Assembly (NCBI GenBank): GCA_016719135.1
Contig: JADKAV010000021.1
Coordinates: 1,900-65,899 of the forward strand
DNA: 64,000 nt
Source: Micrococcales bacterium
GTDB taxonomy: Bacteria; Actinomycetota; Actinomycetes; S36-B12; UBA10799
Direction of reading: 5' to 3'
Below are positions 15,595 to 34,495 of the stretch, piece after piece. Positions within the stretch are counted from its first letter, which is position 1. The number at the start of each line of letters is the position of its first letter. The position numbers were made by a program, and so were the translations under genes. The notes below the pieces were generated by a model. That model was not told the DNA's origin and ran no database searches. It saw nothing but the letters and a program-made list of their open reading frames with translations.

Positions 15595-15624
15595 TTGACA
15601 CACCAATCCCCGATCCGGCACAAT
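15595..15624 (+). promoter_or_regulatory. candidate sigma-70-type promoter of clpB (possibly giving a leaderless mRNA)
   Basis: TTGACA (15595-15600), 18-nt spacer, CACAAT (15619-15624). The clpB ATG is at 15631, i.e. about where transcription would start. There is no well-spaced Shine-Dalgarno sequence. Confidence 0.3.
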
Positions 15625-15630
15625 AGGACC

Positions 15631-18164
<2,534 letters not shown>

Positions 18165-18268
18165 GGAGGGTGCGCCGACGTTCCCGCGGCATTCGGTTGA
18201 TTCTGACCACAGACATCTGGCGCGGGCTTGGCTAGGGTTTCGCGCATGGAGCGCGCGCGCACCACGCC

Positions 18269-18300
18269 CGCACGCCATCGGCCAGACGCCGAGGCGTGCG
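18269..18300 (+). terminator. weak hairpin downstream of clpB
   Basis: CGCACGCC (18269-18276) and GGCGTGCG (18293-18300), 16-nt loop, followed by GTTTCC. No proper U-tract. Confidence 0.25.
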
Positions 18301-18334
18301 GTTTCCGTGGAAGCCAGTCGCACGTTCGCTCGAG

Positions 18335-18727
18335 ATGACGTCGACGGCGCTCGACCGACTGCAGGATGCCTGCTCGCAGTCCCCCGACGCTGAAACCGGG
18401 GGGCTTCTGATCGGCTCCGGCAGCACCTGCGCAGACGTCCGAATTCTGGCCAATAAGACTGTCGGCGATCGCCGGACCACCTATGCCGTCGACCCGGACG
18501 ATCTTCACCACGTCGAGCTCTCTTTGGGAAGCCGTCGGTCGATCGGATGGTGGCACAGCCATGTCGCCCGCTCGCCGCGACCGAGCCCGGGCGACGTGGC
18601 CGATGCGCCCTGGGCGACCTTCCAAGTCATCGTGTCGCTGGTCGCCGGAAGGGGTCTGCGGATTTCGCGGTGGTGGGTGGACCACCACGGCAGGTGGCAT
18701 GACTTGGGGGAGTTGCGGTGGCGCTGA
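18335..18727 (+). CDS. stand-alone JAB/MPN (JAMM) metallopeptidase (cluster gene A)
   Basis: Complete JAMM signature. Glu in ..DAETGGLLIG (GAA at 18392-18394). H-S-H-x7-S-x2-D in WWHSHVARSPRPSPGD (18554-18595). ATG 18335 is within ORF 18296..18727. Confidence 0.8.
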   Translation: MTSTALDRLQDACSQSPDAETGGLLIGSGSTCADVRILANKTVGDRRTTYAVDPDDLHHVELSLGSRRSIGWWHSHVARSPRPSPGDVADAPWATFQVIVSLVAGRGLRISRWWVDHHGRWHDLGELRWR

Positions 18728-19830
18728 GTCTGCTCGAGGAATGGGGGCGCGGTCTGTTCACCCTTCCCGGGATGGGCGAACGCATCCGCGGCGATCCTCC
18801 CGCCGAACCGGCCGGCGGCTGGCCGGAGGATTTCGACCCTGCTTCCCTGCCGACCCTGGCCGAGGAGGCCGTCCGGGTCGCGAGGCCTGCGATTCGAGCA
18901 CTGCTGCTGGCGGGTCACCGTCCGCTGACCGCGACCTTCGTCGGCCTGAAGGCGACCGCTGACATCGTGGTGGATATCGGCGCGCGGTCGTCGGCGTCGG
19001 TGGGTCCCGGGTCAGTGACTGGGCTCGATCCCGCCGCCTCCGTGGCAGTCAGCTTCGCAACGGTTCCGATGTTGAACGCCCGCAGCGTTTTCGAGGCGGT
19101 GTATCAAGTCGACGTGCTCGGGCCTGCCACCGACGACCGTGAGCCAGTGGAACCAACCGATGTCGACGTGGCCGGCATGAGTCTGGCCGCCGACCTCAGC
19201 GGCATCAGCGGCGACGGCTTCGAGCTGGATCTTGGCCGTGCAGAGCCCGGCAGCGTCCTGATCTGGGGGACCGGAACGGGTAGCCCGCCGCTTGCTGTCC
19301 TGACCGAATCGGTGGCGGCCTTCGTCCATCCGGTCATCGCGCGCCTGGCGAGCATTTACCAGGCCGCCGCCCCGCTGGCACCCGGTGGCACGGGTCTGTT
19401 GTGGCTGTTCGACCCCTCGACCTGGTGGTCGCCGGATTGGACGTCGGCCGATCCTCAGCGGGAGCGGGGCAAACGGGCTCTGACCAGAGTCGGCAATCGC
19501 GGGCTGACGGGAATCGGCACCGAGCTGAGCCATGCGAATTTCATCACCGGTCAGGTCGACGGCACCGGCCTTGTCAGCGGCGTGCTCACCGGTTGGTTCC
19601 CCAAAGCCAGCGCACGCAACCTGAGCCGCAAGGCCGGGCGGATGTTGCCGGTGGACGACACGATCACGCCCGAGCTGGTCGACTCCTGGTCCGACCAGTG
19701 CTGGTTGGACCACCTGCTTTCGTGGGCCAGATGGGGCGTCATACAGCCTCCGGCACTCCCGCAGGCCGACGTCGATATCGGCGCCGGCGCCGGCGACATC
19801 GACGAGATCGGTGACTGGTCACGGCCGTGA
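18718..19830 (+). CDS. hypothetical protein (cluster gene B, 370 aa)
   Basis: Intact ORF with good third-position G/C. The GTG start overlaps the JAB stop by 10 nt (GTGGCGCTGA). No motif recognised. The segment GDGFELDLGRAEPGSVLIWGTGTGSPPLAVLTESVAAFV is faintly reminiscent of SUKH/SMI1-type immunity domains (weak). Confidence 0.65.
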   Translation: MALSLLEEWGRGLFTLPGMGERIRGDPPAEPAGGWPEDFDPASLPTLAEEAVRVARPAIRALLLAGHRPLTATFVGLKATADIVVDIGARSSASVGPGSVTGLDPAASVAVSFATVPMLNARSVFEAVYQVDVLGPATDDREPVEPTDVDVAGMSLAADLSGISGDGFELDLGRAEPGSVLIWGTGTGSPPLAVLTESVAAFVHPVIARLASIYQAAAPLAPGGTGLLWLFDPSTWWSPDWTSADPQRERGKRALTRVGNRGLTGIGTELSHANFITGQVDGTGLVSGVLTGWFPKASARNLSRKAGRMLPVDDTITPELVDSWSDQCWLDHLLSWARWGVIQPPALPQADVDIGAGAGDIDEIGDWSRP

Positions 19831-20152
19831 TGAACGCGGACCGGTCCCAGGTCGCCTAGCCGTCACCGGCGACAGCGAACTCGTCGCTTGGCTCATCAAC
19901 CGCTGGCACGGCGTGCAGACGATCGAGGACGCCGTCTGCTGGGAACTGATCCGCAAGGACGATGACAAGGACGAGTTGCTGGTGGTCGCCGCGCCGGGGG
20001 TGCAGATCAGCGTGCCGCAGGACCCCAATCCGTGGTGGGAATGGACCATCGTCAGGGTGCAGGACCCGGCGCTCGTGCCGAACTGGGGCGAGCGCATCAT
20101 GCTCGACGTCCTGCTCCCTTCCCGATCGCCCTTGAGCCGCGCCCGGACTTGA
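19811..20152 (+). CDS. hypothetical protein segment C (probably the N-terminal part of one C-D-E protein)
   Basis: ORF 19811..20152 (..DSELVAWLINRWHGVQTIEDAVCWELIRKDDDKDELLVVAAPG..). The last ~10 codons look out-of-frame, while the +2 frame continues sensibly (..LLPFPIALEPRPDLNSWPSNKPPDLDPDNPTPTPVDP..) from ~20120. Alternative start: ATG 19830 (TGATG overlap with B) plus a shift at ~19857. Confidence 0.5.
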   Translation: MTGHGRDERGPVPGRLAVTGDSELVAWLINRWHGVQTIEDAVCWELIRKDDDKDELLVVAAPGVQISVPQDPNPWWEWTIVRVQDPALVPNWGERIMLDVLLPSRSPLSRART

Positions 20153-21039
20153 ACTCGTGGCCGAGCAACAAGCCCCCGGATCTCGACCCGGACAACCCGA
20201 CACCGACCCCGGTGGATCCCGTGGTGATGGTCTTTCCCAGCCCCACCGGTTGCCGCATGATATCCGTGTACGAGAACGGCGCCCGCGCTGGAGATCCGTA
20301 CTTCGTCGCGGAGTTGACCGTGAGTGAGACCTCCGGAGTGGATCGTTACGCCATCGATGCCCTGATGGGTCTGACCTTCGACTTCGGGTACGACGCCACC
20401 GTCTCCCGACCGCGGATCACGATAGTGAGCATCTGGGCGAGCTCCGACGAGGTGGTGGACATCACCTACGCGGTGCCGACCTTCCGCTTCTGCCAGTACC
20501 ACTGCAGGCTGACCCCGGACTCGACCGAAATGCCCCGCTTCGGTGAATCGCACCCGGTGCCTCAGAGTGACCTGGTCTGGCCGTGGGAGGAGAACCCCGG
20601 GGGAGTGCCCCTCACCATGCACCTGCCCGCGGGCGTCATGGCCCCGGACGGCTCGATCACCCAGCAGGACGTCAATCAGATCACCGACGCCATGTGGGGA
20701 GATGCGATCTGGGGGCAATACTGGACCACCAGCAAGGCCAAGCCCGGCACCACGGTCAACGGGGAATGGATGCAGATGGTCGCCGACTTCGCTGTCGGCC
20801 TGATCCCGTGGGTGGGAGATGCCGTCGACGTCGCCGAGTTCGGCTACGCGATGTTCAGCGGCAAGGACCGCTGGGGTCGTCCGCTGACGAATTTCGACCT
20901 CGTCGTCCTCGGAGCCTGCGCTGCCCTGCCGTTCGTCTCCACTGGCATGGTCAAAGGTCTGGCCCATGGCCAGACGCATGAGTGTGGACGAGATCGTGAC
21001 GGACGCGGCGAGAGCACCGTTCGTGGCCCACGGTGGTGA
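20032..21039 (+). CDS. hypothetical protein segment D with a PT-TG-like pre-toxin module
   Basis: ORF 20032..21039. At 20779-20940 it encodes VADFAVGLIPWVGDAVDVAEFGYAMFSGKDRWGRPLTNFDLVVLGACAALPFVS. This matches, from memory, the pre-toxin TG (PT-TG) pattern of polymorphic toxins (..IP.VGD..D......G.D..tG..L...dr......lP.v). The last ~25 codons are Arg/Gly-rich and look out-of-frame. Confidence 0.5.
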   Translation: MVGMDHRQGAGPGARAELGRAHHARRPAPFPIALEPRPDLNSWPSNKPPDLDPDNPTPTPVDPVVMVFPSPTGCRMISVYENGARAGDPYFVAELTVSETSGVDRYAIDALMGLTFDFGYDATVSRPRITIVSIWASSDEVVDITYAVPTFRFCQYHCRLTPDSTEMPRFGESHPVPQSDLVWPWEENPGGVPLTMHLPAGVMAPDGSITQQDVNQITDAMWGDAIWGQYWTTSKAKPGTTVNGEWMQMVADFAVGLIPWVGDAVDVAEFGYAMFSGKDRWGRPLTNFDLVVLGACAALPFVSTGMVKGLAHGQTHECGRDRDGRGESTVRGPRW

Positions 21040-22348
21040 CGACTTCTGGGAGACGATGGCAAAACTCGTCGTGAACCCCAGTCGGCCGGGCACCGAGGAG
21101 GCGATCGATGCCGCCCGGGCGGGCAGCCGCCGTCTCCAGCAACTGCCCATTGCAGAACGACGACAGGTGATCCGTTCCATGCGGGTTGTCCTCGAACAGT
21201 GCAGCGAGGAGATCGCCTCGAAGGTGACCTCGCGGACGCTGGCACTCGGTGATCTGCTCAAGAATGACAACGAGTTCTGGGTGGCTCCGCTGCAGTGGCA
21301 TTACCAACGGTGGCGGCGGGCCCGCATCACCGCGGCCGAGAAGGCCGGGGCGTCGATCCCCACGGACATCAGCCCGGCCGACTACTGGCAGGCCTCCCGG
21401 GGCCGGCCGCGCGCGATGTTCGACTCGCTGCTGGGACTGACGCCGACCGAACAGGCCGCGCTGGCCAAGAAGAACGCGCTCAGCAGCAGCAAATGGGGAC
21501 CCGTGCCCACCGTCACCCGGGCCGGAGGTGTACGCGCGGCTTTCCTGGTCGGGCGCGTCGGCGACATCCTGGCTGCGGTCCCGGTGCAGCACCGACAGCG
21601 GATCGAGGCGCTGCTGGCCCGGCTGTCACCGGACGGCACTGCCGCGGGGATCGATGCCGCCGGCCTGCGCAAGCTCATGGGTGACAATGCGACCCTTCAC
21701 CCGGACGAGCTTGGAGCGCGCCTGGCCGGAGCGCTGGAGATCATGGTCGACGAGGCGGCGCAGGCCGGGGCGAACGTCGACGACCTATTGGCGCTAAACC
21801 GGGTCGAGGGCATCTTCAAGGAGATCGTGGTACTCAGCGGGCCCGGTTACCGGCAGCAAGCAGCGGAGATCTTCGTGATCGCCAAGGCGCTGGCCGATGG
21901 TGACGTGATCCGGATCCAGGAGGATCTGCTCACCGCGGCCGGCACGGTCGCCAAAGGCCCGGATGTGATCCGTTCCGCCGGTGGGGTGCCACAGATCGTG
22001 CAGGTCACGGCGCAGGTCTCGGTGGACGCGATACTGGGCTCCGGCAACAAGGTCATGAAGCAGTTCACCGACGACTTGCGGCGGGTGTACGACCAGTTCG
22101 GCGGCTTGCGACTTCCCTCGTTCGACGACCCGACGGTCATCGTGGACGCATCGACCGAGATCGTGTTCAAAGTCGACTTCGACTACCTGCTGCTCAACTC
22201 CCGCAAGACGGCCGACGACCTAGAGGACCAGTGGGTGGAGGACGCCTTCGTCCTCCAGCAACACCTCGAGGACTACATCGCGGCGATGGATCTTCCCGGT
22301 CCTGCGCTGACTGTGGTGGTTGAGGCGTTCCGGAGGACGGACCCATGA
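20966..22348 (+). CDS. hypothetical protein segment E (460 aa; possibly the C-terminal region of C-D-E)
   Basis: Intact 460-aa ORF in the same frame as segment C. ATG 20966 lies 74 nt inside segment D. Reading ..ALPFVSTGMVKGLA then ARRMSVDEIVTDAA.. across a 1-nt shift near 20960 is at least as plausible as a separate gene. No motif recognised. Confidence 0.6.
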   Translation: MARRMSVDEIVTDAARAPFVAHGGDDFWETMAKLVVNPSRPGTEEAIDAARAGSRRLQQLPIAERRQVIRSMRVVLEQCSEEIASKVTSRTLALGDLLKNDNEFWVAPLQWHYQRWRRARITAAEKAGASIPTDISPADYWQASRGRPRAMFDSLLGLTPTEQAALAKKNALSSSKWGPVPTVTRAGGVRAAFLVGRVGDILAAVPVQHRQRIEALLARLSPDGTAAGIDAAGLRKLMGDNATLHPDELGARLAGALEIMVDEAAQAGANVDDLLALNRVEGIFKEIVVLSGPGYRQQAAEIFVIAKALADGDVIRIQEDLLTAAGTVAKGPDVIRSAGGVPQIVQVTAQVSVDAILGSGNKVMKQFTDDLRRVYDQFGGLRLPSFDDPTVIVDASTEIVFKVDFDYLLLNSRKTADDLEDQWVEDAFVLQQHLEDYIAAMDLPGPALTVVVEAFRRTDP

Positions 22349-25300
22349 TCGTTCGCCTGATCGCAGACCTGTTCGCGCCGCTCATCCTGGCGATCACCGA
22401 CCGCGACGACCTCGAAGTACTGCTCGTAGATCTCGGGGTAAGCGTCACCGACGACTTCCCGGACGACCCGTTGGACGGTCTGCGGGCAGTCGCCCCGATC
22501 GGTGCCGTCGAGGACCTCGTGGACCTGATCGGTCCCCTGCTGGACGATCCCGAGGCGGACCTCGATGCAACCACGGTCGCGGCGGTTGTCGACGCCGCCG
22601 ATTCGTTGCTCACGGGGCTGCGAGACGTGGTCCCGGCCTCCGCGGCTCCGACGTGGTTGGACGCTGCCGAGCTTCAGGCCGCGCTGGAGAACCTGCCCGG
22701 CTATCTGCTCTACCGGTGGATCGAATCCCTGTCCCCGGTGACGGCAGCCGTTCTGGATCTCGCTGGCGCGGTGGATGTGATCGAAGCCTCTGGACGAAGG
22801 GTTCTTGACCACCAGGCGGTGGCGGCCTTGTTCGCGGATCCCATCGTGCACAGCGAGCAGATCTATCGCCCGGATGGTTCGTTGGACGCCAACCTCTTGT
22901 TGGGCAGGCTCTTGGTGGTCGCGCGGGCGGCGGGTCTGGAGCTCACCGGGGACGGGATTCAGGTGCCACCATGGCTCTGTACGACCCGCAGGACCGCGGA
23001 TCCGTCCAACTGCACGTGGCCGCGGAGGATCCGACCTGGTGCTGGTGGCCAACGTGGCCGGCCAACCGCGGACGTCGTTCGACGTGGCCGACTTCCTTCT
23101 GGTCACGCTGGAGGCCGATCGTTCGGTGTTACCCGGTGCCTCGCTGCGGGTGTCGGGTGAGGGTTTGGCCACCGTCGCACCGGTGGTGGGTTCACCGCGT
23201 CTCACCGCGCGGGCGGCGCTGACCTCCCCGGAGGAACCGTGGTCGTTGATCGGAAGCCGGCCCGGTACTCGCATCGAGGTCTCCAGCGTGAGTTTCGAGG
23301 CCGGCGTCCGTTTCGGGTCGCAGGCCGGTGTCCACGTCCTGCTCGAGGTTCCCACCGCGGGCATGTCTCTGACGATCGAACCCGGTGATGCCGACTCGTT
23401 CCTGGGATCAGTGCTGGGCGACACCTCGATCCGGGTGCCGTTCGACTTCTCCATGGGCTACGACAGCGCGACCGGATTGACTTCATCCGGGGGTCTCGGT
23501 GTGGCCTTCAAGGTGCCGTTGGCCCTGCGTCTGGGCCCCATCGAGATTGCTGGGCTGGACGTGGCAGCCGTGATCGACGGATCGACGCTCGCGGTCACCG
23601 CCACAGCCGACGTCCTGGGTTCAATCGGTCCCTTGTCGCTGGCCCTGTCCGGAATCGGGGCCGCTGCCAGACTCGACCTGGCTGCCGGTTCCGCGCCCCG
23701 GATCGGGTTCGAACCGCCGACCGGGGTCGGGTTGGGGATCGATCTCGGGGTGGCGAAAGGTGGCGGATTCCTCGACATTCACCCTGACGAGGGTCGCTAC
23801 GACGGTGTCATCGAACTCGAGGTGATCGCAGTCGGCGTCTCGGCGTTCGTCATCGTCGAGACTGACCCCTGACCTTGACAGCTGGTCGATGATGATGGCC
23901 CTCTTCATCCAGATCCCGGCCATCCAACTCGGGTTCGGTTTCGTTGTCCGGTCTGGGCGGTCTGGCGGGTATCAATCGTGGCATCGACGCCGACGCTCTC
24001 CGGTGATGCGGTGCGGTCAGGTCCCTGGACACGATCCTGTTCCCCAGACCCGATCGCGCAGGCACCGCTGATCATCGACACGCTGTCGTCCATCTTCCCG
24101 GTCGCCGACGGCCAGTACGTCTTCGGACCCGTGGTGAAGATCGGCTGGGGCACGCCGACCCTGGTCGACCTGAGCGTGGGCGTGGTCATCGAGGTGCCCG
24201 ATCCGATCCGCATAGCGATCATCGGGTCCGTCGCGGCGATCCTGCCGCGTCCGGAAATGCCACTGGTGGAGCTTCATCTCGACGTCGCGGGAGTGGTCGA
24301 TTTCGAGGCGGGAACACTGGCCGTCGACGCGAGCCTGCACCACTCGAGCATCATCGGGTTCAGTCTCGCCGGCGACATGGCACTGCGCGCCTCCTTCCGG
24401 GACGCGCCGTCGCTGCTGCTCGCCCTCGGCGGCTTCCACCGCGACTTCGAACCGCCCGCCGGGTTTCCCCGGCTCGCCCGGCTGTCGATCGGGCTGAACT
24501 CGGGGCCGCTGTTCCGGATCTCGTTCGACTGCTACATCGCGATCACGTCGAACACCGTGCAGTTCGGCGCCGCGTTCGAGATCGTGGCCGAAGTCGGCAG
24601 CTTTGCCATCGAGGGCGGCACCGAGTTCGACGCGCTCATCCGATTCAACCCGTTCGCTCTGACGCCGTCGATCGGGCTGTACATCTCGGTCAGTGCTGCT
24701 GGCTTCGACCTGATGGGCGTGTGGCTGTCGGGGCGACTGGAGGGCCCGAATCCATGGCACATCACCGGATTCGCGGAGTTCAAAAGCTCTCGGGATGAAG
24801 AAGCAGGTGAACGTCGACGAGATCATCGGCACACGGTCGGCCGAGATCACACCGGCGATCCCCGACGTGCTTGCGATGGTCATCAAGCGCTCGCGCTGGA
24901 CGGTGCCTGGACGGCCGCGGTCTCCGGCACCGATGGTGTCACGCTGCGGAGCGCATCCCAGACGAACGACGATCTGTAGGCCGGTCCGCGGGGCCGCCTG
25001 GAGGTGGGCCAGAACGTCGTTCCGCTCGGTGAACCACTGGAAGTACGGCAACGCCGGGGTTGCTGCACTCGAGTTCCGGTTGCGGCCCGGCGCAGGGCTG
25101 GCACTGACCGGAACTGTTCGCGACTTCGGTTCTCCCGGGTCACTACACATTTCAAACCGAAGGGCGACTTGCGGCGCCGTCGTTCGAATTGATGGATGCC
25201 GGGATCGTTCTCGGGGAGGCGCGGTGCGGTCCATCACGACCGACCCGGCTGGGGTTCGAGTCCATCCTGCTCGATACCGACCTCAGGCTTTCAGGCCCCT

Positions 25301-25506
25301 CCACCGGTGCGGTGTCGCCGGGGTCCGTCGTGCCGTTCGGTCGGGTGCAGGCACTCTGATCATCAGCCGATGACCACGGATTCCGGGCCACAGGTACCGA
25401 CACCTACGGTGTCGTCAGGCCCACCTTCGTCGTGGCTGGCGCCTTGAGCGGCAAAGGGTACCGAACCGGCCGCCAGCACCTTCCTTGCGGCTGCGACGCG
25501 GGTTGA
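22345..25506 (+). CDS. very large hypothetical protein F (about 1050 aa after repair), DUF6603-like; many frame breaks
   Basis: ATG 22345 overlaps the stop of E (ATGA). It is rebuilt from ORFs 22345..23160, 22971..23222, 22805..23872, 23889..24071, 23978..24979, 24795..25373, 25004..25192 and 25196..25447. Blocks: KGGGFLDIHPDEGRYDGVIELEVIAVGVSAFVIVET, IQLGFGF..SGLGGLAGINRGIDADALR, LDTILFP.PDPIAQAPLIIDTL, GGFHRDFEPPAGFPRLARL, ITSNTVQFGAAFE, APSFELMDAGIV. From memory these match DUF6603-type proteins (unverified). The 3' end is uncertain (25447-25529). Confidence 0.6.
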
Positions 25507-25545
25507 CCGTGGCCAGGTGATCGCCATGGCCGGGGAGAACGACCG

Positions 25546-28377
25546 ATGAGCGAATCCATTCAGTTCCTGCCGTGGTTCCGGACCGGGTTGGCCGCGACGA
25601 TCGAAGGTGACACCGGTGGTACCCCGGTGATGCTGTCCTTGGCGGTCGCCGTCGAGGCTGTCCGCGCCGACGATGGCGATACAGAGGTCACCGACCTTCC
25701 CGGGCGTTCGATCAGGTTGCACGGGCCGGGCGCGGTGACTGCCGTCCATGACGATCAGATCATCCGGCGATACCCCGAACCCGGTGCCACCGATCCGGAG
25801 CCCAACTACTTTTGCGCCGTCGAGTTCAGTAGCCCCGACTTCCCGTGGCGCTTCACGCCGGCCGCGCCTGATGCGGACAACCGGCTGCAACCGTGGCTGG
25901 CCCTGGTGGTGGTGGAGGACGTTCCCGGCGTTCTGCGTTCGGGGCCCTTCGGGCTGGACGTACTGCACATCGAGGATTCCGCACGTGAGCTGCCTCCCCC
26001 GGCAGACGTCTGGGCGTGGGCTCATGTGCAGGTAGATTCCGCCGACCCCGACGTCGATCCGGTGGCACTGTACGCGCGCAGTCCCGCAGCACTGCGCTCG
26101 CGACTGCTCTGCCCGCGCAGGCTCATCGCCGACCGGTCGTGGATCGCGTGTGTCGTTCCCACCTACGAGGCGGGCCGACTAGCTGGCCTGGGCATCGTCA
26201 ACAGCGGCGCCACGGGCCACGCCTGGCCCGCCACTGGTCCGGTGGAACTGCCGGTGTACCACACGTGGAGGTTCCGGACCAGCGAGCGCGGCGATTTCGA
26301 ATCGCTGGTGCGCCGATTGAGGCCGGTCGAACTGCCGCCGGCGGTCGGCGTCCGAGACCTCGACATCAGCCGTCCTGGAAGCGGACTGCCGGACGCGGAG
26401 GGCACGATTGTCAGCTTCGTCGGTGCGCTGGTCTCCCCCGCGGCCACCGCCCGGCAGTGGAGCCCCCGTCACCGCCGGCAGACCGCAGCGGCCCTGCGCG
26501 AGGTGCTCCGGGACGACGTACCGCAACCGGCCCCCGACATCGACTACGACCCGCTCCAGCACGACCCCGTGGTGCGTCCGGCGCTGTACGGGTCGGTCCA
26601 GTCGCAATGCACCAGCCTCGACGATTCGGCGCCGCGCTGGATGGAACAACTCAACCTGGACCCTTCGGTCCGGTCCGTGGGCAGGGTTGGAGCGGCCGTG
26701 GTCCGGCGTGATCAAGAGCAACTCATGGACGCGGCGTGGGAGGCGGCCAAGGGCCTTGAGGAGGTGAACCGGCGGCTGCGGGCGGCAACCCTGGCGCTCG
26801 AGGCCGGGACAGCGCTTCAGCACCGACTCGACGCACTGCCGGGCGAACGGCTCCTGCAGTTCGCTGGGCCCTCGCTGGCCCGTGTCGCGGGGGGCCGGGG
26901 TACTTTGCTGCGCGAACTCAAGCAGTCGATCTCCCCGACGCCGCCGGACTCGGCGCCTACCGGCGGATCGCCCGACCGCGCGGTCCCGTCTCGTGCGACT
27001 CGGTCTGCGTGATCCTGCCACCTCGGTCAACCGGCGGCTGCTGGACGCGCCCGGCGGGCCGATCACGCATCACGCCAGGAGTGGCGGTACCGGCCGGATG
27101 TGATGTGGCGGGACTCGAGCGGGACCTGCCCTCCGACGCCGACGATCCCGCGTTCGACATCGACCCGCAGATCCGTCGCTGGATCGATCCGGACAGCGAG
27201 GGGCTCACTGTGAGGCGGCTCGCGCAACCGACTCCGGAGGGCCCCGGTTTAAGCCAAAGCCGGGTCGTGGAGTGGAGGTGCTCGGCGTGCCCAGCCGCGA
27301 TCGAATGGTCGTGGCTGCGCGGACTCCGCCCGCGTCAGGCTGTCCGGACCCGCGAGCTGCGCCCGTCGGCCAGCGCCGCCACCCTCCAAAGCCGCGAGCC
27401 TGCGGACGTCAATCCGGCCATCGCCGCCCGGTTGCGCACGACGATCAAGCCCCTCCTGGCGCCTGGCGAACGGCCGTCCCAGCCGGATGTGGGCCACGCC
27501 GTCCTTCCCGCTGGCCCTGTACACGCGGGTCCAGGAACTCTCCATCAGTACCTGGTCCCCGGCGTGGGCGATATCCCGGACGAGTCCGTCGGGCTGCTCG
27601 AGACGAATCCCCGGTACGTGGAGTCGCTGCTCGTCGGTGCCAATCACGAACTCAGTCGTGAATTCCTGTGGCGCGAATACCCCGCGCAACTGCACGACAC
27701 CTGGTTCCAGCAGTTCTGGAACGCCCCCGCCCCCGACATCAACCCCATCGGTGAGTGGACACCGCACACGGAACTTGGGGCCAGACCGGCTCGACCAGGC
27801 CCGACCTGGTGATCGTCATCAAAGGGACGTTCCCCGCCGGTACCCCGACGTCCGCGTGTTCGCCGCCCGTGCCCAGTGGCGCCAGGAAAACGAGACAGGC
27901 CGGTGGTTCAGGGACGTGGCCGCCGACGCAGAGCAACGAGGGCCCTGTGCTGGCCGGCGAGTTGGCGCCTGGGATCGTCTTCTACGGTTTCGACCTCGAC
28001 GTCGATCAGGCTCCGGGGCGCAGCCCTAGGAACTGGCCTGGCGACCCGGGCTGGTTCTTCGTGCTGGAGGAACAGCCGCCTGGCATACGTTTCGGCCTGG
28101 ACAGCCGGACCGGGTCGGTGGGAGGTGCGGGGCAGGGTGTCGCGCCGGCCAGCTGGGATGACCTCACATGGGCCAATGTGGCATCGGCTGACGCGCAAGA
28201 GGCGCCGACGTTCATCGATCTCGCGGCTACTCCTGGCTTCGGAGCGCAGCGCTGCCAGGCGCAGGCGGCACCGATGAGTGGGGCACGGATGCTGCGGGGC
28301 AGGCCAGGATCACCGTTCAGCGTCCCGTGCAACTGAAGGTCCACGCGTCCGCGATGCTCGGTCAGGCGCACTCGTGA
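25546..28377 (+). CDS. very large hypothetical protein G (about 940 aa after repair); ~9 frame breaks in its 3' half
   Basis: ATG 25546 is preceded by GGGGAGAA. 25546-26940 is one clean frame (FLPWFRTGLA, IRLHGPGAVTAV, FSSPDFPWRFTPA, LQPWLALVVVED). The remainder is spliced from ORFs 26882..27103, 27009..27812, 27487..28029 and 27755..28336 plus a last frame ending at TGA 28375-28377 (..EWGTDAAGQARITVQRPVQLKVHASAMLGQAHS). Frames were chosen by hand-counted third-position G/C. Blocks: LLETNPRYVESLLVGANHELSREFLWREYP, DVPRRYPDVRVFAARA, GWFFVLEEQPPGIRFGLD. Confidence 0.6.
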
Positions 28378-31300
28378 TGCCGCCGGATCGTCCCAACGGC
28401 CCGGCGTCCGGTCCGGGGCCGCGACGGCGTGCCCGTCGGCGCCGGACCCCCGAACTCCGGGCATGCCGGGCGACCCCCGGGTGCCTGGAACTCCGGGCAT
28501 GCCGGGCGACCCGCGGGTGCCCGGACCGATTCCCGGCCGGGGACAACGGCCGATGCTGGATCGGATTCCGCCCGTGGAGTTGCGGCTACCTGACGCAGCG
28601 CCCCGTATCCCATCGCTGACCGGAAGCCTTGGCGGAATCGACCGGGAGGGGCTCGGGCTCTCACCAGACACACCGCTGTTGCTGCTGCCGGTCCGCCTGG
28701 AGACGAAGTACCGGCGCGCCAATCAGGAGCTTCGCATCCGGGTGTTCCCCGACCAGATCCATCTCGACAGCGACGACCCTGGACTGACCGCTCACGAGAT
28801 CGAAGCGGGAGGCTCGTTCTGGACCCAGTACGCAGGTGCGGACCAGACCACGCAGGAAGCCTTGTGGGTCGCGTTGTGCGAAGCGGTGGGTGAGAATCGC
28901 GCGGGCCATGTGGCACGAACCGTCCGTGCCGCACCTGGCCCGTTGTCGGCGCATGATGTCGACCCCCGGCTTCCACCGTTCTGCTGCCGCACCGTTGGAA
29001 CGTGCTGTGTTTCCAGGGCGACCAGTTGGTGCACAGCCAAGCCGGCGCGGTCATTGATCAGACGATCGAGGCGAGTCCGGATCCTCTGGCCGACACGGTC
29101 ACCCTCGACGCGAGCGGTCTGCAGGTGAGTCCCGCGACGGCCTGGATGTTCGACTGGGACACCGCGGTCGAGGTGGGCATGGCGATGAGCATCGATCTGC
29201 GGGAACTGGAGGGCGGACCCGCATTCTCCACAGTCCTTGTGCTCGGGCTGCGGCCCGGCGAGGATCCGCAGGCCGCCGCCGCCGAGTTCGCAGAAGTGCT
29301 GGAGATGCACGAGCGGTCCTCCGGGCTGGCATTCGTGCCCGATGGCACGGCGACGAACAACGTGCCGGACGAACCCGCCGGCTGGACCAGACACGATCGG
29401 CAGCTGCGCGCTGCGGTCAAGCCCGAGGCAACGGCATATGACGCGCTGGCCGGTCGCAACGCCGCAGTGCTCGCTCGCGCGCTCGGTCTGGCCGACCCGA
29501 CCTGCCTGGCACGGGCCAAGGGGTCCCGGCGAACCGACCGGCAAGACGCCGTGCTGATGAACAAAGCCTTGTACGAGCCCGTTCTTGGACACTACGTCGA
29601 CCGTCTGTTGGGCGACGGGGTGAAACCCGGTCTGGATCGCGCCGCCGAACTGGCGTTGCGCAAGCTGTTCATCGACGAGGTCGCTGGCGGCAGTCCCCTG
29701 CCCGCATTGCCGGATCGGCCCTCAGCCGTATGGCATCTTGCCGATAGGAATCCTGCCGCCCCCAGCGATGGCACCAGAGGTCACCTCGTGCGCATTCTCG
29801 ACCTGCTCGAGCCCGAGTGGCGCAGGTCCGTCGACAACGTCGTGCGCATCGACCCGAACGCGACCGACACGGTCATCGTCGAAGGTGACTCCGGGTCCCG
29901 AGCCGGTCGATCTCATCCCGGCGGTGCTGGCGTCGCAGCCGCATGCGGCGCGGGTGTTCAGCCGCACGTTCTACTCGCTCGACGATGATTTCTGGGCCTT
30001 CCTGAGCCCCCAGCGGCTGTATTCCTTCATGGTCGACACCTGGATTCCGCAGGAGCACCCCGAACTCGTGGATTACATCGCGGCCATACCGCAGGGCGCG
30101 ACGATCGACACTCAGATTTCCCTGTGGGAGTTCGCCAAATCGATCGTGGTCTCCGACGACGATCTCGACGACGGCATCGGCTTCGACATCCCGGCGCAGC
30201 GCAAGCAGAACGCGATAGACACCATCGACAGCGTTCTGCTGCTTCTCGGGGGCTGGGAGTTCAGGCAGCGCCCCCACCGCACGCTGGGTCTCCCGCGGTG
30301 GAACGGTGCTCTGGGACATCCGCACCCGCCACAACTCGTCGATGGTCGATACGGCACGGAGCAGGAGTGGTCCTCAGAATCCCTGATCGGCGCCGCAGAT
30401 GTGCCCGACCAGCACGCTCCGCCTGCCTATCTGGCCGACCTGGCGGCTCGGTTCTCAAGTGCGCCGGGATCTGCCAGCTCCCCTGCCGGCCGAGTTCGCC
30501 CACCCACCCCTGCTGTACCAGTTGCTCAGCCTCACAGAGGCCTCGATGGATGAACCCCGACGGCGCCAGGCGACTGCCAAGGCGATCACCGGCCTCGCCG
30601 CGATCGCCGGCCGTCCCGGAGGATCCGACCAGCTCGAGCGGCTCATGCTGGAGACGCTGGGTCTGGTCACCAACCGGCTGGACGCCTGGGCGACGTCCGT
30701 TCACACGTCGCGGTTGGCCGAGTTGCGGGGAGACGACGACCCGCCAGCGGGAGGGATCCACATCGGTGCCTATGGCCTAGTGTGCGACCTGGCGCCGAGT
30801 CCTGATCGTGGCAGCAACGGCTTCGTCCACGCCCCGTCCCTGTCACACGCCGCGACGGCCGCCGTTCTGAGGTCGGCCTGGCTGAGCCACGGCACGACCG
30901 CCGCCGACTCGGCGGCTGCAGTGGATGTGTCCTCCGCGCGAATCCGGACCGCGCAGTGGGTGATCGACGGCATCCGCAACGGGCAGTCGCTGGGTGAGTT
31001 GCTCGGGTATCGATTCGAGCGGCTCCTGCACGACACCGCGGCCAGCGGCGCGACCCTTGACATCCGGCGGCAGGTGATCGCGTTGCGCAGAGCCCGTCGA
31101 CGGTGTCGAACTGCTGGAGATGCGCGACCGGCTGGCGCTGGGGGGCCGGCTGGCCCCGGTCGCCGCACAGATACGCCGTGGCCTCGACGACATCGCCTGG
31201 GTGGCCGACGCGGTGGCCGACGCTGCTCTGTTCGACGGAACGCATCAGCTCCTGCAGGGGAACTCCGCGCGGGCCGCGGCGATGTTCGACTCCATGAGTC

Positions 31301-32668
31301 TGGGCTTGGGTACGCCCCCGGAGTTGCGCTCTCACGTCAGCGCTCACGGCGGGCTGACCGTCGAACATCGCGTGCTGGTCGTACTCGATGCGCGTTCCCG
31401 TCCGGATGGGCGTTGGCCGCAGGGGATGCGCGGGATGCTCGCACCTGCCCTTGAGCGGTGGGCGCAGAGTCTCCTGCCCGACCCGGCGTCGGTGCTGCTG
31501 CGGGTGGTGGATCGTCCTGAGGACGGTGTGCGCCAGATCCCCCTGGCCGACTTGGGGATGGCAGCTCTCGACGTCGTGGCATTGACCCATCCCGACCCGA
31601 CCGGGATCACCCCGGCGTTGCGCTGCCTTCTGCAGCACAGGTTCGGGCTGTCCGACGACGTCCGGGTCCTGACCGGCGAAGGGGGCGGCGTCACCTTCGA
31701 GGAAGTCCAGTTGATCTGTCGTGAGATCGCCGCGGTGCTTCAGAGATCGGTGGTCGGGACGAGCGCTGCCTTCCATCCGGCGACCGGTGACGAACCGGAG
31801 GGGGCGCCCCCTCCGGCGCTTGTCGCCCACGTCGATCTTCTGCGGGAGACGTTCGCCGATGCCCTGGCCGCCGATTTCCCCTCACGGTGGGAAGTGTTGG
31901 CCCGATACGGATGGGCGCCGGGACCGACCCGGAGGCCACCGGGCGCAACTGGCCGCCCGGCTGGCGAAACTGGACGCCAAGCGGTCGGCCGAAGGCGTCA
32001 GCGCCACGGATACGTTGACCGCTCTGTTCGCCAGCGCCCCGCACGTGGTGCCTGAAGTCACCTACTCCGCGAGCAGCGCCGGTGCTCTCGTGAGGTTCTC
32101 GGCCGGTCTTGCGAGCAGCGACGAGATCGACGATTGGTTGGACGCGGTGGCCCATGTGCGACCGGATGTCGCACGCCTGTCCGGGGCGCTGATGCTCTCG
32201 AACCTCGCCGGGGTGCCGGCCAGCGCTGTGGCAGTGGGTCAGGACGTGGTGGTCCCCGGTGAGCGCTGGGCCGCGACCCACCTGCCGCCGCCCGGTGCGG
32301 CGGGCCGGGTGTCGGTGTGTGCTGCAACTGTGGATGGTTGGATCCCGCGGGAAGGCGATGAAGTCTGCGTATTGATCATCGATGCCTGGTCCGAGCAGAT
32401 TCCCCGCACCGACGCAGTCACCGGCGTCGCATTCCACTACGACGCCCCGAGCAACCGCCCCCCGCAGTCATGGTTGCTCGCCACCGCTCCCGCGGACCAG
32501 CCGTGGTCGATGGGGTTGATCGCCGACATGGTTCTCGACACCGTCGACTGGGCGCGCAAACGTATGGTCGCGCCTGAAGACCTCGGCGACTGGGGACACG
32601 GCATCCCCACGTCGGTCGTGCCCGGGGTCGTGACCCCCTGGCCCGGCGAAGAGGAGTCCGAATCATGA
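28377..32668 (+). CDS. very large hypothetical protein H (about 1430 aa after repair); ~8 frame breaks
   Basis: ATG 28377 overlaps the stop of G (TGATG). Alternative starts are ATG 28463 or ATG 28550. It is rebuilt from ORFs 28278..28619, 28463..29128, 29002..29988, 29738..30553, 30399..31454, 31120..32055 and 31721..32668. Blocks: LLLPVRLETKYR..LRIRVFPDQIHLD, LLPHRWNVLCFQG, ALRIGPQPYGILP, TNRLDAWATS, NGFVHAPSLSHAATAAVLRSAW, RNGQSLGELLGYRFERLLH, GVAFHYDAPSNRPPQSWLLA. Confidence 0.6.
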
Positions 32669-34373
32669 GATGGAGCCGGATCGAATCCATGGGCCGGGCC
32701 GCCGACTTCGCGGATGGGATCGCAGCACGCATCGCGGACCCTCTTTGGATGCTCGGCAGGCAGTGGCAACTCGGTGAACTCACCGGTGACGACGCCACTC
32801 AGCCCGCCGCCGTCAGGGTTCGTGTCCGGCACGCGCCGCTGGTGGGCTATCAAGCCGGCGATGACCGCCCTCGGCGGCTTGGGCCAGAACAACCCCTCGA
32901 ACGACTCGTCGAGGCAGGTCCGCCACCGCCCATGGGTCCTGGGGCTGTCCACGACACGGTTCGAGCCGGTGAACGCCTGCGCCGCCGCCTCGATCGTCTG
33001 GGGCTGTCCCAGGCGGTGGCGGCGTTGCGTACGGCATTTCCAGTCGACCCACATGGCCAGGGAGCGGTCCGGCTGGGTGCCACCGAACAGGCACGTCTGG
33101 ACATGCTGATCCGGCGCGGCATGGACGGCCGCGCGGTGGCAGCGGCCACCGGCAGCACCCTCCAGCAAGCGCTTTCCGAGTTGCCCGCAGCGGAGCGGCC
33201 AGCGCTATGGATGTCATCCGCACATGGTCCAAAGGTGAAGACGTCGAGTCCTCGGCGGCGTGGATCCCCGAACGCTTCGAGCATCGGTTCTCCGTGTTCG
33301 CGCAGGACCGCGATGAGTTGATCGCGCTGCGGGCGCAAGCGCACCAGGGTGGGATGCTCGACTGGCACAGCTTCGACGTCGACCCGGATGCCGCCCTGTC
33401 CTCGACCCCGACTGGGAGTGATCGCGGGTCGTCCACGGAGGTGACCGCCATCGCGGCACCCGTACGCTTTGCAGGGATGCCCGCCTCCCGGTGGTGGGAG
33501 TTCGAGGACGGTGAGGTGAACCTCGGCGATCTCGACGCGGGGCCGGCGGATCTGGCCAGGTTGGCCGTGGCCGAGTTCGCGACGGTCTACAACGATGATT
33601 GGTTCGTCGTGCCGGTACGGGTTCAGCGGTCATCACTGGTCCGGGTTGAAGAACTCACGATCATTGACACCTTCGGCGAGAAACACACGATCCGGCCCGC
33701 CTCGTTGATCGATTCCCGACGCGACGCTGAGTCGTCCGATGAGACCCGAGCGTGGCGCTTCTTCGAACTCGACGGCGACCCGCACCATGCGCAGAAGCGG
33801 GCCCCCTGGCTGCTCGTGCCGCCCTCCTTGGCCAGTACTTTGCATGGCCCGCAGCTCGAACGCGTTGCCTTGGCTCGCGACGAGGATGCCAATCTGGCGT
33901 GGGCGATCGAGCGGATCGTCGAAGGCCCCCTCGGCCGGCCCATCGACCGCGCCAGCACCTGGGCGGGTAACGATCGGGCACCGTCGTCGCAGCACAGAGC
34001 AGATGCGACGTGGTGGTACGAACTCGAAACGCCGCCCCCGCCATGGTGGATCCCCCTGGTCCCCGAGCGCCAGGATCCGACCACCGAGCAGGTCCGGCTG
34101 CGCCGTGCCCGGATGGCCACCTGGGACGGACAGGATCCGCGCGACATCGGCCCCAAGGGAACACTGCTGGAGCCGGGCGGGCCATTCTTCGTGTACGAGG
34201 AAGAAGTGCCGCGAAGCGGTGCCACGGTGTCCCGGTCGTGGCAGTGGGCACGGTGGCAGGATGGGTCCGCGCACCTGTGGCTGCAGCGGAGCAAGCAGAA
34301 CGGCCACGGCGAACGATCCGCCGGACTGCGTTGGGACGTGCTCCACGACAGCCCACCTGGCGACGGGTCGTGA
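32665..34373 (+). CDS. large hypothetical protein I (about 570 aa after repair); one frame break near 33197
   Basis: ATG 32665 overlaps the stop of H (ATGA). ORFs 32665..33321 and 33207..34373 join at ..ELPAAERPAL | MDVIRTWSKGEDV... Blocks: DPLWMLGRQWQLGELTGDDATQPAAV, PERFEHRFSVFA, HQGGMLDWHSFDV, MPASRWWEFEDGEVNLGDLDAGPADLARLAVAEFATVYNDDWFVVPV. Confidence 0.65.
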
Positions 34374-34433
34374 TGGCCGCCGGCAGGTGGGTACCCGGCA
34401 ATTGATGGCTGTTCCTCGGCGCCCAGGCCAGAC

Positions 34434-34457
34434 CTTTGGTGTAGATCGGCACCAAAG
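34434..34457 (+). terminator. small hairpin after the cluster
   Basis: CTTTGGTG (34434-34441), 8-nt loop, CACCAAAG (34450-34457). No U-tract. It lies between gene I and the EEP gene. Confidence 0.2.
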
Positions 34458-34495
34458 CGGCGCCAACCGCATCCGGCCCGATTAAGGTGGCGGCC

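Follow-up and report, generated by a model that had tools for sequence, protein, structure and literature searches.

A JAMM-type peptidase gene without a recognised ubiquitin-like partner at the head of a DUF6603 gene cassette

Introduction

The JAMM enzymes known so far cleave behind the Gly-Gly at the C-terminus of a beta-grasp domain. What, then, does a small JAMM protein do at a locus where no such partner is recognised? The question is raised by a JAB/JAMM gene in the window (the whole 64,000-nucleotide stretch of DNA analysed here), which an earlier note described as a stand-alone peptidase heading an operon of giant proteins, and for which it proposed one of the downstream products as substrate. 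Here we describe the gene, its surroundings and its relatives, and weigh what the product may act on.

The JAB gene and its product

18246..18727, + strand: JAB/JAMM peptidase gene; PF14464 match; E, HSH, S and D conserved; intact form at L026:414-893

Translation of window positions 18296-18727 gives a 143-residue product with DAETGGLLIG and WWHSHVARSPRPSPGD, which matches the Pfam family Prok-JAB (PF14464) with 33.7 bits (E 3.6e-8; cut-off 25 bits). The complete JAMM set that had been read in 18335-18727 is thus present, and none of Glu, HSH, Ser and Asp is lost, but the length of about 130 residues given with it is probably too short. The full product most probably has 159 residues and starts at ATG 18246; this form scores 34.6 bits against Prok-JAB and is found unchanged on 88 independent public contigs. 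In the window the gene reads as 130-143 residues, owing to 1-bp insertions at two places, near 18306 and near 18311, relative to L026, an independent short-read metagenome contig of 5166 bp that is 99.6% identical to window 17833-22988 (16 gap positions, most of them in homopolymer runs). Coding in the JAB frame is backed by the GC3 phase, in a window with a G+C content of 65-71%.

A profile built from the protein and seven relatives matched solved structures of small JAMM proteins (2kcq, E 5.7e-27; 2kks; PfJAMM1 5ld9, 8e-16). In the alignment of these eight JAB sequences, Glu49, His103, Ser104, His105, Ser113 and Asp116 (numbering of the 159-residue form) are invariant, and both the catalytic Glu and the H-x-H-x7-S-x2-D zinc motif are present. 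The catalytic residues are kept in the full-length members of the clade, P0002-P0005, down to 36-38% identity; in P0064, a 109-residue fragment, Gly replaces the Ser of the motif. The N-terminal 28 residues are weakly conserved in the alignment, and the C-terminal tail is rich in Trp (WWVD..GRW). A Pfam scan of the 159-residue form at E<=1 returned Prok-JAB alone, with no match to RadC or to the Tox-JAB families, which answers the earlier concern that the protein might be RadC-like. The gene apparently encodes a complete and active JAMM-type zinc metallopeptidase domain.

The stop codon of the gene (TGA 18725-18727) overlaps the next gene, as had been noted before; the overlap with the GTG start at 18718 is 10 nt. 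A relative with 31% identity conserves residues 7-17 of the protein encoded by that next gene, which argues that the GTG start is real.

Organization of the locus

15595..18164, + strand: clpB, left flank of the island; frameshifted in the window
18165..34490, no strand: island (insertion) of roughly 16.4 kb, between the clpB stop and a secreted EEP-family gene
18718..22348, + strand: gene for a 1213-residue protein, four frames in the window (B, C, D and E of the earlier note); a single open reading frame at L026:884-4525
22345..25506, + strand: F, DUF6603 protein of about 1050 residues (PF20248); frame-broken in the window
25546..28377, + strand: G, conserved cassette protein; matches no known family
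28377..32668, + strand: H, conserved giant protein of the cassette; matches no known family
32665..34373, + strand: I, last conserved cassette protein; order conserved, matches no family

The four genes B, C, D and E, previously taken as separate, do not exist as such: they form one open reading frame of 1213 codons in L026, and the protein (P0073) is identical on 47 public contigs. Frames are broken elsewhere in the window too. In clpB, positions 1-44 of the AAA_2 domain end one open reading frame and positions 49-165 open the next, whereas orthologues in the same genus are intact (855-857 residues), so that the split is attributable to an assembly indel. On these sequence comparisons, the frame breaks in the window are assembly artefacts and not signs of decay. 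An in-frame TAG at 23870-23872 interrupts the DUF6603 frame of F; the genome search likewise recorded one TAG inside the DUF6603 match, which is probably another assembly error. Near the G/H junction, window positions 28452-28523 hold an adjacent 36-nt tandem duplication whose copies are 94% identical.

The same chromosomal site is empty in other genomes of the genus. In G010, G007, G002 and G012 the matches to clpB and to the EEP-family (phosphatase-family) gene lie about 0.5 kb apart, and in nucleotide alignments with G010, G007 and G002 the homology ends at window position 18164 and resumes at about 34600, leaving an unaligned gap of 140 bp in G010. The island holds exactly the JAB gene, the gene for the 1213-residue protein and F, G, H and I. 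Sequence comparison thus defines the stretch from the JAB gene to I as one insertion, and the JAB gene, which had been placed at the head of the block of giant proteins, is its first gene. No tRNA, integrase-like feature, flanking or boundary repeat, promoter or terminator was found at the ends of the island.

Search for a canonical partner

Searches of the genes on both sides of the JAB gene with Pfam, NCBIfam, PADLOC and PHROGs gave no Ubl, E1, E2 or CD-NTase family, and neither the island nor the roughly 15 kb around it contains a ThiS-like, E1, E2 or cyclase gene. The upstream neighbours are genes for acyl activation, a deacetylase, an S58 peptidase and clpB; on the downstream side the cluster is followed by a gene of the EEP family and by repair genes (Ada/Ogt). 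Together with a six-frame search of the whole genome, these results uphold the claim that no recognisable canonical partner is encoded nearby. The six-frame search gave a single ThiS match, on contig C7:

G000:C7:158953-161710 (L001): Mec+/CysO/CysM operon, with a canonical Mec+ JAB (138 residues), a ThiS-like CysO (92 residues) and a PALP-family CysM (315 residues); the sole ThiS-family match of the genome

No ThiF scored above cut-off in the six-frame search of the whole metagenome-assembled genome (MAG; 3.1 Mb, 86% complete). With no ThiS other than the CysO on C7 and no ThiF above cut-off, an isopeptidase cycle would be without its conjugating half. CysO normally needs an E1 of the ThiF/MoeB type, and the one missing here may lie in the unassembled part of the genome.

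The locus also differs from each of the known arrangements in which small JAB proteins occur. Adjacent CysO and CysM genes, the mark of a Mec+ operon, are absent from the window. For the Cap3 protein of CBASS, the NCBIfam score of the JAB protein is 20.1 bits against 200, and PADLOC returned generic JAB matches of <=30 bits with no cyclase or E1/E2 neighbours. Bil or 6E-type systems are not indicated, with no ThiF above cut-off in the genome and no ThiS match near the island. As regards the tail-assembly protein TAPK of phage lambda, the 159-residue protein consists of the JAB domain alone, and its neighbours have no PHROG matches.

The DUF6603 cassette

F matches PF20248 with 244 bits, while G, H and I have no family match in Pfam, NCBIfam, PADLOC or PHROGs, and the look-alikes of H in the protein atlas are all without names. 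The order F-G-H-I recurs in seven further genomes of the Actinomycetota and in 5 of 13 genomes of the same genus, at other chromosomal sites and with 25-56% identity. The loci at which this order is conserved are L017-L025, L038-L042 and L046. A literature search found no paper that mentions or describes DUF6603. The cassettes of the same genus (L038-L042, in 5 of 13 genomes) lie at other sites and are about 25-48% identical to the copy in the window, which indicates that the cassette was gained more than once in the genus.

The position directly upstream of F is taken by different genes at different loci, in many cases by one for a hydrolase:

L018 (L018:13081-16197): two trypsin-like peptidases, paralogous, 39% identical
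L021: M64-like peptidase, with a BLAST relative in L020
L022/L023: PhoD-like
L038-L041: PG-binding proteins

The genes found in this position also include those for a WD40 protein, an MFS transporter and proteins containing OmpA or PG_binding_1. At twelve other DUF6603 loci tblastn found neither the JAB gene nor that of the 1213-residue protein, and in seven genomes of the phylum sample every Prok-JAB match in Pfam searches was far away from the cassette. F-I is therefore a widespread cassette that normally goes without JAB, and a role of the JAB protein as its core maturation factor was rejected on the strength of 13 other cassettes that lack it. Among the downstream products that the earlier note proposed as substrates, the adjacent 1213-residue protein, discussed below, is the candidate to which split homologues point.

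Rarity and phylogeny of the JAB clade

The JAB protein is rare. Among 1.84 billion representatives, searched exhaustively with HMMER, 2 matched with E<=1e-10 and 69 with E<=1e-3. A search of 60 relatives' genomes with the JAB query did not find it, the single 28%-identical match lying elsewhere, and a profile search of genome contigs with the JAB alignment found nothing. The metagenome scan with the same alignment recovered L026 and distant, E1-linked JABs and nothing else. Two proteins considered as fused JABs, P0006 and P0009, were rejected, their long matches being repeat or coiled-coil artefacts.

In a quick maximum-likelihood tree, from which we use the split of the focal clade alone, P0002-P0005 and P0064 form a clade on a long branch (length 1.0, aLRT 99), apart from the Mec+ protein of the same genome and from the E1-linked JAB. 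The phylogenetic placement called for in the earlier note thus sets the protein, with its clade, on a separate branch. The nearest out-group consists of E1-linked JABs on soil metagenome contigs (L027-L032), as in L030:9833-12391, where a 345-residue JAB is followed by a 506-residue E1 of the ThiF family, a classical Ubl-system context. That JABs with 28% identity adjoin a ThiF gene on these soil contigs implies that the focal clade has left that context.

Fused and split forms of the neighbour

20764..20959, + strand: PT-TG-like linker block, residues 687-751 of the 1213-residue protein; its best conserved stretch

The 1213-residue protein is made up of an N-terminal part of about 755 residues, the PT-TG-like block, so called for its resemblance to the pre-toxin TG domain, and a C-terminal part of about 455 residues. 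It has no family match in Pfam, NCBIfam, PADLOC or PHROGs, and PDB profile searches with the N- and C-terminal parts returned nothing at E<=1. AlphaFold2 models of the two parts were unusable (N-terminal part: 760 residues, 4 sequences, mean pLDDT 28; C-terminal part: 513 residues, 3 sequences, mean pLDDT 41). Protein-atlas leads for the protein are PT-TG and toxin families. The block at residues 687-751 is shared, at 43-50% identity, with other large proteins that have different C-terminal regions.

The JAB gene and the gene for the 1213-residue protein lie side by side in the window and in L026. Two further pairs are known, each placed together on the basis of the same source and the same contig size in bp: the JAB P0003 (85-86% identical) with P0084 (1212 residues, 95% identical) on a JGI contig of 9517 bp, and the JAB P0004 (58-64% identical) with P0074 (1212 residues, 82% identical) on a Logan contig of 14233 bp. 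Both proteins thus co-occur in all three close lineages that have either, two of the pairs being counted on the evidence of source and size.

A different arrangement is seen in L046, a locus in a MAG of the Solirubrobacterales found by a scan of species-representative genomes with the alignment of the large protein. There, a 715-residue protein that matches residues 193-752 of the 1213-residue protein with 27% identity (and P0075 with 43%) ends in the PT-TG-like block, with the C-terminus ...PFVSSGAVRGVKAALGG. Its stop codon overlaps the start of a second gene (ATGA), whose 537-residue product is 29% identical to and collinear with the C-terminal part of the 1213-residue protein (E 1e-10), and after which come F, G and H. 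In the 23 kb of this locus neither tblastn nor two purpose-built HMMs turned up a JAB gene; the only Prok-JAB of the genome lies about 770 kb away from it. A profile search recovered further N-terminal parts of the split type, which together with P0075 make six, with lengths of 715-741 residues, all of which end 10-12 residues after PFVSxG and three of which end in Gly-Gly. The three fused proteins continue straight past this point (…PFVSTGMVKGLAMARRMSVDE…). The junction in the fused protein, LAMARRMS, has no Gly-Gly.

In G461 the PT-TG model PF14449 gives a match of 15.1 bits (E 0.14; model positions 5-59 of 68), below the 23.5-bit cut-off, which sits exactly at the C-terminus of the split N-terminal part; in the genome of the window PF14449 has no match at E<=10. 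A search of 150 relatives of G461 did not recover the N-terminal part. A Proteobacteria MAG (JAHJLI010000043.1) encodes at L047:7913-11131 a 1072-residue protein with a PT-TG-like block, 37% identical to residues 694-833 of the 1213-residue protein and followed by small open reading frames; the locus has neither a DUF6603 cassette nor a JAB gene and resembles an ordinary polymorphic-toxin locus.

A possible processing peptidase and its alternatives

The 1213-residue protein is encoded as two genes without JAB in another actinobacterial order, which suggests the neighbour as the substrate. The most economical hypothesis is that the JAB protein acts in trans as a peptidase that processes the fused 1213-residue protein. 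The reading is favoured by the gene overlap, the strict co-occurrence of the two genes, the lack of a conjugation apparatus and the fact that JAB is missing where the protein is split; we place its probability at about 0.4, because the comparison draws on a single split locus seen in full and on effectively one origin of the fused-plus-JAB arrangement, the three fused lineages being so close that they amount to a single event. The JAB gene would stand as an accessory gene at the 'head' of a mobile DUF6603 cassette, and its product, acting in trans as an endopeptidase on the translationally coupled neighbour, would cut just after the PT-TG-like block, at about residues 750-760. The cut would release an N-terminal part of about 80 kDa and a C-terminal part of about 50 kDa, with no ubiquitin-like conjugation machinery involved, and would thereby restore after translation the two-chain state that is coded as two genes elsewhere. 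We infer JAB catalysis, the neighbour as substrate and the position of the cut. That a JAMM enzyme free of any Ubl partner has become a dedicated maturation protease that splits the fused DUF6603 head protein in trans at the PT-TG-like linker is, in this specific form, rather unlikely. Counting against processing, the fused junction lacks Gly-Gly and no beta-grasp domain is seen, and the JAB protein diverges faster than its neighbour (85% versus 95% and 58-64% versus 82% identity).

Other roles have been considered. The varying and often hydrolytic genes upstream of F (L018, L021, L022/L023) would be matched by a JAB protein that is an exchangeable head-gene payload or accessory hydrolase, acting outside the island (on a protein of a target cell or of the envelope, for example) or on F-I rather than on the neighbour, and JAB domains are known as toxin modules (Tox-JAB-1/2; PMC3482391). 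We regard this as unlikely, since the protein, at 159 residues, has no targeting or trafficking domain and matches the peptidase-type Prok-JAB family with Tox-JAB absent, and since its gene lies one position further upstream, not adjacent to F, and has never been seen without the 1213-residue protein. A classical de-conjugating or Ubl-releasing JAMM, with a cryptic beta-grasp domain inside the 1213-residue protein or F-I, is distinctly improbable: the island has no ThiS, MoaD or Ubl profile match (the ThiS of the genome being CysO alone), no E1 above cut-off was found in the genome, the neighbour has no sequence similarity to PDB entries, and phage genes and an NlpC/P60 domain are missing. The idea draws on a lambda parallel, in which TAPK (JAB) accompanies TAPI (Ubl), sometimes fused to TAPJ, on the match of the JAB protein to a PHROG 'tail protein' family (34.9 bits), on the three split N-terminal parts that end in Gly-Gly, on large neighbours without assigned folds, and on the fact that all characterised peptidase JAMMs have a Ubl C-terminus as their site of action (PMC1779556).

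Slightly less probable still is that the gene is a hitch-hiker or a decaying gene, or that its product is not a peptidase (a RadC-like nuclease, or an enzymatic immunity protein for the neighbour). The faster evolution of the JAB protein, its poorly conserved N-terminal 28 residues and the tiny size of its clade (2 of 1.84 billion representatives match with E<=1e-10) would be in keeping with such a passenger, but the catalytic residues are invariant in the full-length clade members P0002-P0005, the start/stop overlap is retained in the window and in L026, the two assemblies read as DNA, Pfam gives no RadC, and the 159-residue form is unchanged on 88 contigs.

Comparison with known systems

Small prokaryotic JAMM/MPN+ proteins (PfJAMM1, the HvJAMM1 desampylase, Mec+ Rv1334, 2kcq and 2kks) share the size, the fold family and the E/HxH/S/D site of the JAB protein. 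They act on SAMP- or CysO-type Ubls encoded nearby, whereas none lies near the JAB gene here; the focal clade is further set apart by its long separate branch and the Trp-rich C-terminal tail, and its score against the NCBIfam desampylase model is 36.6 bits, compared with a cut-off of 130. The TAPK/TAPI/TAPJ module of lambda (PMC1779556) is similar in that a JAB gene directly precedes very large, structural-looking proteins in the absence of E1/E2, and the JAB protein has a match to a PHROG tail-protein family (E 2.5e-8). In contrast to that module, the island has no NlpC/P60 domain, recognisable Ubl or phage genes, and F-I and the 1213-residue protein match no PHROG family.

The neighbour resembles the PT-TG polymorphic toxins (PMC3482391, PMC13483458) in its large N-terminal region followed by a G-D...G-x-D-x-W-G block. 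It differs from them in that the PT-TG model is sub-threshold or silent, no known toxin or immunity family was found, and the C-terminal part is conserved across orders rather than polymorphic; no trans-acting JAB has been described for these toxins. Other DUF6603 (PF20248) cassettes have the same F-G-H-I order and a variable head gene, and none of those examined carries JAB. The JAB protein is a variant within an enzyme family already known, met here in a new context, and does not by itself make a new kind of system; the DUF6603 cassette is the more novel object.

If the processing reading fails, the JAB protein would be one more variable accessory hydrolase of the cassette. If it is true, a JAMM clade that serves a giant-protein cassette without a Ubl partner would widen the substrate logic of the family, and it would provide a biochemical role for PT-TG-like linkers and a first experimental handle on the DUF6603 cassette.
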